Below, piece by piece: positions 1,701-6,423 of a stretch of DNA of 64,000 nt. Source of the stretch: Myxococcota bacterium (GTDB lineage: Bacteria; Myxococcota_A; SURF-8; G963663525). Each line of letters opens with the position of its first letter. Positions within the stretch are counted from its first letter, which is position 1. Under the pieces are notes generated by a model that was not told where the DNA came from, ran no database searches, and saw nothing but the letters and a program-made list of their open reading frames with translations. The translations under genes were made by a program, and so were the position numbers. The stretch is taken from contig CAXXVK010000060.1 in assembly GCA_963676915.2 (NCBI GenBank), forward strand, positions 192,001-256,000. The letters are read 5' to 3'.

Positions 1701-1740
1701 AAAACGCGCCGGGTGGATCAATCCTCCGGCGCGTTTTTTT
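1701..1740. terminator. Bidirectional intrinsic terminator overlapping the OMP stop codon
   Basis: AAAACGCGCCGG-13nt-CCGGCGCGTTTTTTT between convergent genes. Confidence 0.7.
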
Positions 1741-3083
1741 CGTCCTGTTGTGGTTTGAAGCCACGGAAGAATTCGCCCATCGTGGGATATTCTTCTCGGT
1801 CCTGCTCTTCCTTTTTCATGGCTTTGCGCGTGGCGCTCTCGGTGTCGTCGTTGTAGCGGATGCTTCCGGCGTACAGCAATCCAAGGTACCATTCTTTCAC
1901 ACCCAACCTGCGTTCCTGCACCACTTCGTGTCCGCCACCCATGGCCGCATTCAACCCCAGCATCGAGGTCGTAAAGGCGTTTTCCCAGCCGAACGCCGCC
2001 GTAATTCCGTAAAAATCGATTGCGGTAGGCATCCCTTCGCGGCTACGCGAGGGTTTGGGGGCCGAACTGAAATCGGTATACATCCCGGCACGCAGAAAAT
2101 ACCAGCGTCGAAAACGTTGCTCGAATCCCAGGTTGACGTTGCCGATGGCATCGAGCTTCACCGGTCCGTCCGCCAACTCCCGGTTGGTCTGGTCGTGAAT
2201 GGTCACGTCCGCAACGAAGGTCGTATTCAAAAACGGCTGAAACGCGACGCCCGCCCGAAAGGAAAACGGCATTTCGATGGATTCCGAAATCGTCCGGTTG
2301 GAAATGTAGATCGGCTCGTCTTGAGGATCGTTGGTGGTGTGGATCGACCGAAATCTTGTTTTCGACCGGGCCGGGAAGGCCGAACGAATCCTCAGTCCGG
2401 CCTGTATCATCGGATGAGGACGTATCCAGACACCCAGAATCGGCGTAAAACCGATGAAGGCACGCTCGGCCACGTTGACGGTATGATCGAAACGTCCGTT
2501 GAGTTCCGTCAGCTCCGAGCGATTTTCGTACTCGGTCCGATAGTAGGCATAGAGTGTCGCGCCAACGGCGAACGCCGGATGCAGCCGGTAGGCCACCGAC
2601 GGTCCGGCGAACATTTCCTGACTTTTGTTGGAAATGTCGATGTAGAGATAAGGTTGTTCCTTCTCGGTCACGAATTGCGCCGACTGCTCGTTGCTTTCCG
2701 GGACCGCGACGGTAAACGCCGCCGTCCAGTCCCCGAAGCGCATCAGGGTTCCCGTGGTCGCACCGATGACGTTGAACGCGCTCTGGGTCAGGTCTTTGCC
2801 GTCCCGATAGTTTTCCACGGTCCGATAGCGTAACTGGTAGATCGACAGGCTCAATGATAGCGAATCGTAACGGGCATTGGCCATTCCGGCGGGATTGTAG
2901 TACGCACCGGAAGGATCGTCCGAAATGGCAGTGAAAGCTCCACCCATCCCGGCGGCGCGTTCGCCGATCAGGCTATCACTATAATGATAGGGGTCTGCGA
3001 AAGCCGCCTGCAATCCGAGGAATAAACCACAGACAGCCAGCACTAGCCCGATGCAACGACGAGTGACCCGGCCCCTTCGCGGC

Positions 3084-3091
<8 letters not shown>
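1718..3091 (-). CDS. FadL/TodX-like outer-membrane beta-barrel transporter
   Basis: Signal peptide (..LQAAFA), plug motif GERAAGMGGAFTAISDDPSGAYYNPAGM, amphipathic strands; ATG 3091 overlaps the upstream stop codon. Confidence 0.8.
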
Positions 3092-4469
<1,378 letters not shown>

Positions 4470-4563
4470 ACAGTCCTCAACCTAGAATCCAAAAAAAAAC
4501 ATTTGTCATGTTCGATTGCTCTCTTAGGAAAGCAAGAAAACGCGAAAGATGCAAGGAGTTTTC

Positions 4564-4618
4564 GCGAAAAAATTTCGCTCTCTTGACGTTTATTTTTCGC
4601 AAAGCGAAATATTTTCCT
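4564..4618. promoter_or_regulatory. Candidate enhancer-binding-protein UAS
   Basis: Perfect GCGAAA-AAA-TTTCGC palindrome (4564-4578) plus imperfect repeats at 4586-4600 and 4604-4618, about 150-200 bp upstream of the predicted sigma54 start site. Confidence 0.5.
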
Positions 4619-4744
4619 TCTTTAGGGTTTATTTGTATCTAACAGTTATTTAACATTTGGTTTTAGAATCAAAAAAACTGTTTAATTACATATTGTTACG
4701 CTATTTATATTTGTTATTTTTTACTGTCCTTTGTGTATATCAGA

Positions 4745-4761
4745 TTGGTATTTTTTTTGCA
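4745..4761 (+). promoter_or_regulatory. Sigma54 (-24/-12) promoter
   Basis: TTGGTATTTTTTTTGCA: GG at 4747-48 and GC at 4759-60 separated by exactly 10 bp, preceded by an AT-rich tract. Confidence 0.7.
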
Positions 4762-4771
4762 CATCTTAAGT

Positions 4772-4902
4772 GCTGTTGAATCCCTCAAAAATCTCCCCGG
4801 ATTTTTGAGTCTTTGAGATCGGAGTGTGCCCCTACTTCGGTCTGGTTCGGAAAACTCCGAACACCCCCTGTGGCGAGAGTTCCCCCCTCTCGCCATTTTT
4901 TT
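4772..4902 (+). ncRNA. Candidate sigma54-dependent small RNA with C-rich loops
   Basis: Four consecutive hairpins (4784-4809, 4816-4843, 4845-4862, 4871-4895) ending in T7; G-U pairs favour the + strand; no + strand ORF in the track. Confidence 0.65.
4871..4902 (+). terminator. Intrinsic terminator
   Basis: TGGCGAGAG-TTCCCCC-CTCTCGCCA-TTTTTTT. Confidence 0.85.
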
Positions 4903-5175
4903 GATCTTTTCATTCGAGAGACGACTCTAATTCGTTAGAGAATCGCGTTCTTTTTGGTTACAATTATATCCTCATGGGGTTATGTTCTCGTGTCAATGCA
5001 AGTCATTCATTTATTTTTATCGGAATATTTTTTTGGAAAATAAATGGATTCCAAAGAAATTTTCTTTATAATGTATCCAGGTAGGTAAGATTGTTTCATG
5101 ATTCGTTGTATATGGAACATGAACTCCCAATGAAAACCGTTGTTTCACAAACACTTAGCCTCCAGCATTCGCTGA

Positions 5176-6423
5176 ATGCCACAAGAAAACGATAGAGACG
5201 GACTGATTATTTCTGGAGTAACGATGCAGCACACCCCCGTTGAAATCGACGCTTTTCCCGAAGCATGGCGTTCCTTGGCCGACGCCAACGCATCTCCTCT
5301 GATTTTCACCGACGAAAAAGGTCATCTGCTTTACGGGAATCCCTCGTGGCAGGCGTGGAGCCATGACCTTCGAACCACTTTGCTTGATGTTTCTGCAAAA
5401 CTTCTCCAGCATGAGTTTTCTCAAACCCGTTCCATTTTGGAAAACCTGACGATTCCGAATCTCGGTGCTATCGCCTGTACCTGCGAATGGCTTGAAGATC
5501 GAGGCAAACGTTTCGGGATGCTGCGTTTCGAGCCGGAGAACCAACCGGTCCTCGAACCCGGAAAAGTAGCCATCGACCGGGAAATGGCCGCCCGCTGGGC
5601 GTTGTTGTCCGCTCGCATGAACAGCGTGGCCGATGTGGCCGCCGGGTTGGCGCACGAAATCAACAACCCTCTGGGCGGTCTGTTGCAAACGGTACAGCTT
5701 TTATCGCGTAACCTGACCATCGATCACGAACGCACCCACGCCCAACTGGAAAAAATCGGATTTGCCGAGGACGAAATCACCAAGTTGGCAAAATACATCG
5801 AAGAACGCCAACTGCTTTATTTTCTTCAGATTATCGGCGAAAGCGGTGAGCGTGCCCGAGCGATGGTATCGTACATGGTCGAATTTTCCCGCCAGCGCCC
5901 GGCCGAGCATCACGAGGTAGATCTCGTCACGTTGGTAAAGCGCTGCATCGAGCTGGCCAAACTCGATACGGACATGCGTAAAATCTACCAATTCGCCCGG
6001 CTTCCCCTCGATATGACGGCCGATCCTACCTACATCGGTGGCGTTTGCATCGAACAACAAGCGAAATATGTATTCTTGCGCTCACTCAAGCGACACGCTG
6101 CCGGACTGCATGCCGCCACGCAGGAAAAGGATGCGTTTTTTCCCGAGTTGCGTCTCGATTTGAGCTATCGTGACGACCGGGCGGTGATCGTTTTCAGCGA
6201 CAACGGCCTGCCGCCCACACCCGAAGACATCCGCCTCGTCGAAGACGGTTCTCTGGATGCCGTATGGAGCACCGACGAGTCACGGTTCGATCTCGCCGTC
6301 AGTTCGTTTTTATGGCAATCCTTCAATCATGGTGGCTATACGTTGTCCGAAAACGAGCGAGGCGGCTGCACCACCGAACTGACCCTTCCGCGAAAAAACG
6401 GTCAATCGGCACATGTGGGGTAA
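5176..6423 (+). CDS. PAS-like + HisKA protein with degenerate HATPase domain (putative pseudokinase)
   Basis: Intact H-box AAGLAHEINNPL; N, G1, F and G2 boxes are degenerate. The start may be ATG 5224. Confidence 0.8.
   Translation: MPQENDRDGLIISGVTMQHTPVEIDAFPEAWRSLADANASPLIFTDEKGHLLYGNPSWQAWSHDLRTTLLDVSAKLLQHEFSQTRSILENLTIPNLGAIACTCEWLEDRGKRFGMLRFEPENQPVLEPGKVAIDREMAARWALLSARMNSVADVAAGLAHEINNPLGGLLQTVQLLSRNLTIDHERTHAQLEKIGFAEDEITKLAKYIEERQLLYFLQIIGESGERARAMVSYMVEFSRQRPAEHHEVDLVTLVKRCIELAKLDTDMRKIYQFARLPLDMTADPTYIGGVCIEQQAKYVFLRSLKRHAAGLHAATQEKDAFFPELRLDLSYRDDRAVIVFSDNGLPPTPEDIRLVEDGSLDAVWSTDESRFDLAVSSFLWQSFNHGGYTLSENERGGCTTELTLPRKNGQSAHVG

Follow-up and report, generated by a model that had tools for sequence, protein, structure and literature searches.

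A very likely small regulatory RNA with unpaired C-runs, paired with a divergent NtrC-type activator gene in an uncultured group of Myxococcota

What is encoded in the stretch that separates the gene of an NtrC-type response regulator from a HisKA-domain gene in an uncultured bacterium of the phylum Myxococcota? The window analyzed here is the whole 64,000-nucleotide (nt) stretch at positions 192,001 to 256,000 of the forward strand of contig CAXXVK010000060.1 (assembly GCA_963676915.2), and the element in question occupies positions 4772–4902 of it. A preliminary description of this DNA, made from the sequence alone, had proposed at this place a sigma-54-dependent small RNA (sRNA) with C-rich loops and had read it as a translational repressor directed against Shine–Dalgarno (SD) sequences. 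Our analysis indicates that 4772–4902 very likely encodes a genuine small regulatory RNA of this uncultured group, not described before. Comparison with the corresponding sequences of relatives bears out the gene, its strand, structure and promoter, the dyads upstream of it, and its fixed partnership with the divergent activator. As for its working, we favor, with a probability of roughly 0.6, a trans-acting sRNA of a new family that would be driven by this activator and whose runs of unpaired cytosines (C-runs) would pair with G-runs in mRNAs. The elements of the RNA, its promoter, the candidate activator sites, and the activator gene are the following (SL, stem-loop).

4746–4762, plus strand: sigma-54-type promoter TTGGTATTTTTTTTGCA, with GG at 4747–4748 and GC at 4759–4760
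4772–4902, plus strand: the small RNA, about 131 nt, with a 5′ end inferred from the promoter and a 3′ end set by the U-tract
4772–4783, plus strand: unpaired 5′ leader holding GUUGAAUCC, from the fold and the alignment with relatives
4784–4809, plus strand: SL1, CTCAAAAATC / GATTTTTGAG, loop TCCCCG, with an unpaired C-run at 4795–4798 (AUCUCCCCG)
4816–4843, plus strand: SL2, 11 bp including three G–U pairs, loop TGCCCC, with an unpaired C-run at 4829–4832 (UGCCCCU)
4845–4862, plus strand: SL3, GTTCGGA / TCCGAAC, a short hairpin without a C-run, from the fold
4863–4869, plus strand: single-stranded linker with a C-run at 4864–4868
4870–4902, plus strand: intrinsic terminator, stem 4870–4896, loop UUCCCCC, with a C-run at 4882–4887 and U7 at 4896–4902
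4564–4578, no strand: candidate activator site 1, dyad GCGAAA-N3-TTTCGC, 182 nt upstream of the −24 element (putative binding site)
4595–4609, no strand: candidate activator site 2, perfect inverted repeat TTTCGC-AAA-GCGAAA, about 30 nt from site 1 (putative binding site)
3084–4469, minus strand: NtrC-type response regulator and sigma-54 activator (receiver domain, AAA+ sigma-54 interaction domain and Fis-type helix-turn-helix), presumed activator of the sRNA

The minimum free energy (MFE) fold of the RNA consists of the same four hairpins that had been pointed out before, and SL1, SL2, SL3, the C linker, and the terminator with its U7 tract all lie exactly where the preliminary description had put them; the terminator was also picked up independently by a consensus scan. 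At −51.3 kcal/mol, the fold of 4772–4905 is far more stable than those of 200 dinucleotide shuffles (mean −30.2, sd 3.8; z −5.50), none of which does as well, and the minus strand folds worse (z −2.81). The earlier assignment to the plus strand gains further ground from relatives, as the one-sided changes in their stems yield G–U pairs, which would be C–A mismatches on the other strand. The locus also stands out within its own genome: among 1931 hairpins with a CCCC loop on both strands, which form 40 clusters of two or more, it provides the only cluster of three. A dispersed high-copy repeat, one outcome under which the proposal was to be given up, is not what we found: the sequence is single-copy in the 5.18-Mb genome, its next-best BLAST match having an E of 0.4.

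The −24/−12 promoter proposed earlier can be read directly from TTGGTATTTTTTTTGCA, in which GG and GC are separated by exactly ten nucleotides, and its position suggests a transcription start near 4772. The congener has a better version, TTGGCATTTATTTTGCA. The pattern TGG[CT]A-N7-TGC has 289 matches in the genome of the window, which corresponds to an expectation of about 0.025 per 900 nt on a single strand; sigma-54 itself is present, rpoN being encoded in this genome, and the consensus scan found no sigma-70-like site upstream of the sRNA. The two dyads between the promoter and the activator gene, like the unpaired 5′ leader and the variation in hairpin number among relatives, had escaped the preliminary description, all of whose own elements stand. 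Eight of the nine sRNA-bearing genomes have a dyad of the GCGAAA-N3-TTTCGC form at 162–185 nt upstream of the −24 element, and the ninth (G009) has a near match that the search pattern missed. In relatives, a second, AT-spaced dyad of the form GC(G/A)-AA...TT-(G/T)C lies 30–40 nt from the first; its counterpart in the window, 4595–4609, was likewise flagged as an inverted repeat by the consensus scan. The loose form of the dyad has a background of 0.12 per kb of genome, and 11 promoter-pattern sites, the one of the sRNA and 10 others, have such a dyad 80–260 nt upstream. The strict form occurs five times in the genome, and only the copy at the sRNA lies within 500 nt of a promoter pattern. From the position and conservation of these dyads, we infer that they are bound by the activator.

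Elsewhere in the genome of the window, on the minus strand of contig C30 near 80588 (L211, about 4076–4091), there is a second sigma-54-like promoter, TTGGCACACTGCGTGCA, with two dyads of like form, GCGAAAATATTGCGC and GCGAAAAAAATGCGC, located 133 and 256 nt before it. The activator of the sRNA, or one related to it, may serve this promoter, which runs divergently from a Ser/Thr kinase gene and leads into a leader of about 250 nt and a 32-codon frame. We rejected this locus as a paralogue of the sRNA on the ground that its leader is unstructured (z −1.3).

Is the module a peculiarity of one genome? We sampled the order with ten species genomes (G000–G009), all of which have an orthologue of the activator, with 58–90% identity as against at most 47% for paralogues. 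The preliminary description had looked to the regions divergent from these orthologues for signs of conservation; once collected, they proved to carry the same module in nine of the ten genomes and on one complete metagenome contig, namely one sigma-54 promoter, upstream dyads, three to six unpaired C-runs, and a terminator with a C-rich loop. Exactly one TGG[CT]A-N7-TGC lies 251–320 nt from the activator start codon in each of the nine; G002 has no promoter pattern in the region divergent from its activator and is without the sRNA. The RNAs downstream of these promoters are 128–294 nt long, with several hairpins (the number varies from four to eight), three to six unpaired runs of four or more cytosines, and a run of five or more in the terminator loop. 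When the terminator pattern was used to scan metagenomes, 17 stretches came up: two are family members and 15 unrelated GC-rich sequence. Of the two metagenome members, L170 is complete, has the promoter pattern, and is divergent from an activator 68% identical to that of the window, and L169 is truncated where the retrieved stretch ends. As a control, we used the 21 best activator homologues from outside the order (50–56% identity), drawn from 401 genomes of the phylum: the regions divergent from them have the promoter pattern in one case and the C-loop array in none. Homologues of about 48% identity, in Bradymonadales and others, are found in kinase–regulator operons without the sRNA.

The sRNA is 84% identical in the congener, and BLAST searches with the window RNA against 41 relatives and with the G007 RNA against the 401 phylum genomes recovered only the congener and one terminator; since BLAST misses known members at E 0.001, it says little about absence. 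What persists is the disposition of the cytosines. Over 11 family RNAs totaling 2250 nt, there are 40 runs of four or more C versus a single such run of G; 34 of the 40 lie in hairpin loops, and 193 of the 201 cytosines in these runs are unpaired in the MFE folds. The nucleotides after CCCC are UA in 12 of the 40 runs and AA in six. The unpaired C-rich motifs are thus kept while the stems vary, as in the functional class of C-rich sRNAs directed against SD sequences.

The changes in the stems respect the pairing. Between G000 and G001, 30 pairs show two one-sided changes and one two-sided change, and between G006 and G008, 53 predicted pairs show seven and one, respectively, with no pair broken in either comparison. 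In the congener, SL1 has one A–U to G–U change, and SL2, the counterpart of the first GCCCC(C)UAC hairpin of the relatives, has one two-sided and one one-sided change with pairing kept in both; the loop and top pair of SL3 differ. The terminator stem has at least eight contiguous pairs from a GG/CC base in all 11 members, with two-sided changes at four of the eight core positions, and its loop holds a run of five or more cytosines in every one of them. A whole-length MAFFT alignment of nine of the RNAs was too poor for one consensus structure. Within the largest family of the order, primary sequence is best conserved in the unpaired 5′ leader, UCAUUGAAYCAUUUGCCCUC, which in the window takes the form GUUGAAUCC.

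The RNAs of this largest family also contain another repeated hairpin, whose loop is (C)AGCAGUAUC(G), seen in L081:941–1113 (G005), L169, L170 (about 2515–2545), and L079:3268–3278. G005 has four copies, three of which adjoin one another, L170 has one, and L169 has at least five, with CAGCUGUAUCG; those of L169 sit in the first 130 nt of its reverse complement. The window RNA has no copy of this hairpin. An unrelated metagenome contig picked up with the terminator pattern (L163, about 430–560) has its own run of hairpins with CCCCCC loops and no sigma-54 pattern, which may be another C-loop RNA from a different lineage.

How does the family relate to known RNAs? The window has no match to any Rfam family (release 15), be it at gathering scores or with E relaxed to 10, in keeping with the earlier remark that the family was not a recognizable one, and nine other family members have no match at E up to 1. 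In the literature searched (supplementary files excluded), we found no description of this RNA. The family is absent from both.

Two groups of sRNAs resemble it in part. The sRNA gene adjoins the regulator gene in qrr1/luxO, crcZ/cbrB, and glmY/glrK; Qrr works with Hfq, and GlmY and CrcZ are protein decoys with other motifs. Like Qrr1–4/5, GlmY, CrcZ, and NrsZ, the window RNA is presumably driven by an NtrC-class regulator; unlike them, it has no similarity in sequence or model to any of these RNAs, and with respect to Qrr, there is neither a Qrr model match nor an Hfq domain found in the genome of the window, which is 91% complete. Response regulators with an sRNA output, as set out in Table 1 of PMC7602753, include the pairs LuxO–Qrr, GlrR–GlmY, CbrB–CrcZ, and NtrC–NrsZ. 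The second group (PMC6486639, PMC2837412, PMC9410917, and PMC4615179) comprises RNAIII, RsaE/RoxS, IsrR, 6C, and cuckoo/CcsR, the C-rich loops of which pair with G-rich ribosome binding sites independently of a chaperone; RNAIII makes two separate contacts on one mRNA. The window RNA shares with these RNAs of Gram-positive bacteria (RNAIII, RsaE/RoxS, IsrR, 6C) and Alphaproteobacteria (cuckoo/CcsR) the several hairpins that expose C-rich loops; it differs from the RNAIII, RsaE, 6C, and cuckoo types in coming from another phylum, in having no match to their models, and in that its array is tied to one activator gene. To our knowledge, no C-rich-loop sRNA of the RNAIII/RsaE/6C/cuckoo kind is sigma-54 dependent.

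The RNA might work as follows. A signal would lead to phosphorylation of the receiver domain of the divergent NtrC-type activator (3084–4469), which would bind both dyads at 4564–4609 and, across an AT-rich spacer, open the sigma-54 promoter at 4747–4760. Transcription would then run from about 4772 to the U7 terminator, and the product would fold into four hairpins with four single-stranded C-runs, three in loops and one in the linker. Without the help of Hfq, these would pair with mRNA G-runs located mainly in or close to ribosome binding sites, and translation would be altered. The transcription of the RNA, its dependence on the activator, its base-pairing, and the identity of its targets are all putative in this scheme. 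That the outcome would be translational repression by pairing with SD sequences, as the preliminary description had it, is plausible.

Which mRNAs might be addressed? The genome of the window has canonical SDs, with GGAGG peaking at −8 to −12, and a run of five or more G is found in the SD region of 81 of 4697 crude gene calls. The Pfam assignments of 20 genes with such SDs are mixed and include several redox and Fe–S proteins. Clusters of at least four runs of four or more G (G4+ runs) within 105 nt number 29 genome-wide; one of them is csp, the single cold-shock protein gene, and another the antisense of the sRNA itself. Four-run clusters were also noted at C9:13108–13211, where UAGGGG is repeated in an intergenic stretch, and at C45:7059–7144, where GAGGGGGG stands just before the ATG of an 82-codon frame; situated in AT-rich or start-codon contexts, these are further candidate partners of the C-loops.

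The csp mRNA is the best candidate target, with mixed support, and we regard it as a possible one at odds somewhat short of even. A search of the ten genomes for complements of the leader found, besides the RNA genes, six matches at two to three mismatches, one of which is csp of G005. There is one canonical csp per genome of the order, with none found in G006. The 45 nt at the start of the RNA and the csp of the same genome (−60 to +45) are exactly complementary over at most 14 nt in G007, 11 nt in G004, and 9 nt in G005 (15 with one G–U), to be read against maxima of 11–13 nt in a random background of 4000 windows; the long matches span the codons for KWFND. In the same interval of csp, G4+ runs number four in G000, G001, and G007, G004 has three, and G009 and G002 have two each; the genome of the window is one of those with four. 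Among 4680 windows around predicted start codons (−60 to +45) of that genome, none has four and eight have three. A G-run SD precedes csp in eight of nine genomes, and it reads AAGGGGG in all five csp genes found in family f4. In the genome of the window, the csp SD region GGGGAGAU is exactly complementary to the SL1 loop over 8 nt, and AGGGGCA at codons 5–7 of csp is matched by SL2; RNAcofold gives a ddG of −13.9 kcal/mol for the pair versus a background of −6.45 (sd 3.07), with 30 of 1550 windows as good. From 23 csp loci outside the order, 18 start-codon windows were parsed, none of them with three or more runs: twelve have none, one has one, and five have two. The csp loci L249, L250, and L251 (genus g23 of family f17, same phylum) likewise have an SD with a G-run, GAGGGGUC, and a further such run at −37; no C-loop RNA was seen next to the nearest activator homologues of that genus.

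A bolder version of this idea, which we put forward tentatively and consider on the whole unlikely, is that the sRNA is the dedicated, perhaps sole, output of one two-component pathway and clamps the csp mRNA at several points, with the C-loops on the G-runs of the 5′ untranslated region and SD and, in most relatives, the leader on the KWFND codons. Were it true, a sigma-54 signal would set the level of the main RNA chaperone, and the same G-run logic could be used to seek the targets of Pxr, the C-loop RNA of Myxococcus discussed below.

A number of points weigh against the pairing of C-runs with mRNA G-runs that we favor, and several of them bear on csp in particular. The excess of terminator-loop duplexes at or below −16 kcal/mol around predicted starts (142 versus 53 inside genes, by duplexfold) is inflated, the start codons having themselves been chosen by SD-like motifs. 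Among individual candidates, the G-run SD of an Fe–S protein is kept in two of seven orthologues and not beyond the genus, and the G5 run of an Rnf subunit is absent from the congener. The csp finding is post hoc. In the genome of the window, csp falls only in the top 2% by cofold, and its rank in a duplexfold test is unimpressive (fractions of 0.009–0.31), a test rendered uninformative because long imperfect duplexes inflate its background. The exact complement between leader and csp is only 7–8 nt in five of eight genomes, that of the window among them (8 in G008, G000, and G001; 7 in G009 and G003). The csp interval has one G4 run in G005 and G008 and none in G003, despite six C-runs in the RNA of the latter, and G002, which is without the sRNA, still has a GGGG SD at csp. 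At the locus itself, the −24 element of the window reads TGGTAT, not TGGCAC, and the organism is known from assemblies alone.

Given these weak target tests, the main rival is that the sRNA acts as a decoy, its C-rich loops (along with the (C)AGCAGUAUC(G) loops in relatives) titrating an RNA-binding protein as CsrB/RsmZ or CrcZ do. Loop modules vary in number, with three to six C-runs and a tandem second loop type, as would also be expected of a protein-titrating RNA, and this counts against base-pairing; the loops also hold a common motif while the stems drift. Moreover, there is a precedent in CbrB, which according to Table 1 of PMC7602753 activates CrcZ, which in turn sequesters Crc. We nevertheless consider a decoy unlikely. 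No candidate protein was identified. CsrA, which recognizes GGA motifs in loops, is encoded in the genome, but the many loop GGAs of the CsrB/RsmZ type are not seen: the loops of the window RNA hold C-runs, and its GGAs lie in stems. The account of Pxr in the pertinent part of PMC5684412 gives no known protein partner for what is the only studied C-loop RNA of the phylum, and the conserved single-stranded leader, together with the long csp complementarity in three genomes, fits base-pairing better. Less credible by far, and the least probable of the alternatives, is that the element is a cis-acting leader or attenuator of the HisKA-domain gene at 5224–6423, or else a small protein gene. In the window's genus, that gene does lie on the same strand 320 nt past the terminator, blocks of the spacer are kept in the congener, and open frames of 41–60 codons overlap the sRNA region. 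However, the RNA ends in a strong U7 terminator, and there is no conserved reading frame on either strand, none staying open even between the two congeners. The gene that follows is a different one elsewhere (a CHASE4 sensor in G004) or an unrelated convergent one (G003, G005, and G009), while the sRNA stays with the activator; thus, the sRNA is not the leader of a conserved gene, and the conserved unit consists of the activator and RNA genes.

A further alternative, that the sRNA is a far-diverged member of the Pxr family and hence no new family, strikes us as very improbable, even though the two have much in common. They share the phylum, a predicted sigma-54 promoter with a putative enhancer region, an adjoining NtrC-type regulator, several hairpins ending in a terminator, and a host without hfq. 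Both have C-rich loops, including one on the 5′ hairpin: the SL1 loop is UCCCCG in the window, where the terminator adds UUCCCCC, and UUCCCCCCC in the Pxr sequence, which we retrieved with the published probe. For Pxr, the passages of PMC5568312 and PMC5684412 that concern it report a predicted sigma-54 promoter and an upstream enhancer region beside an NtrC-type gene, the loss of function upon a C-to-A change in the C-rich SL1 loop, and the absence of hfq from M. xanthus; its targets are stated to be still unknown in the corresponding part of PMC11928866. Membership was judged by a match to the model RF01812 at its gathering score of 80 bits. This model scores 129.2 bits on Myxococcus loci with the same tool, but it matches neither 4470–5180 of the window at E up to 10 nor nine other family members at E up to 1. 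The arrangement differs as well: pxr lies downstream of and co-directional with pxrR/nla19, adjoining and before an NADH dehydrogenase gene, in the relevant section of PMC5568312, whereas the window RNA is divergent from its regulator. The present family further has four to six C-runs versus one in Pxr, a conserved 5′ leader, and a variable number of hairpins. The window activator is 42% identical to PxrR, as any paralogue would be. The best match of PxrR in the genome of the window is another gene, with the window activator coming fifth, and in a complete Myxococcus genome, the window activator is best matched by a protein that shares only 46% identity with PxrR; orthology of the two activators is rejected, as they are not reciprocal best matches in either direction. 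The shared promoter and C-rich loop thus point to a likeness in working and not to membership.

A trans-acting sRNA driven by the divergent activator, the reading we prefer, would place this locus among unusual company. Sigma-54 activators usually switch on operons, and we know of only a handful that act via a small RNA, those of Qrr, GlmY, CrcZ, NrsZ, and Pxr. Here, the activator and RNA genes have been kept together across the order while all their other neighbors changed. This fixed pairing, along with a strict dyad that accompanies a sigma-54 promoter nowhere else in the genome, looks like a pathway with an RNA as its main output. Regulator-driven sRNAs and sRNAs with C-rich loops were known already; what is new is this RNA family, a second and independent C-loop RNA in Myxococcota. 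Its eleven diverged copies and the csp candidate make the mode of action testable by comparison and in vitro. The case also illustrates that fast-evolving modular RNAs escape BLAST, and that synteny and architecture are needed to find them.

As for the genes on either side, the product of 3084–4469 shows the Pfam domains Sigma54_activat (3.6e-69), Response_reg (1.6e-27), and HTH_8 (1.5e-10) and reaches no NCBIfam equivalog cut-off, the best being AtoC with 481.7 bits versus a required 714. Downstream of the sRNA lies the following gene.

5224–6423, plus strand: HisKA-domain gene (HisKA 4e-08)

Possibly the cognate kinase of the activator, though in no genus but that of the window, it does not belong to the conserved module. 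In the spacer between the terminator and this gene, at 4990–5062, the blocks TTTATCGGA, GAAAATAA, and GAATTTTCTTTATA are kept in the congener and may serve that gene as promoter or operator. On the other side, conservation of the gene 3′ of the activator is confined to sublineages. In the window, it is a long frame on the minus strand (1718–3322; L075:135–1742) that overlaps the end of the activator gene; it is not kept across the order, is 76% identical in the congener, and displays a weak likeness to outer-membrane beta-barrel families (FadL/TodX, PorV, and BamG).

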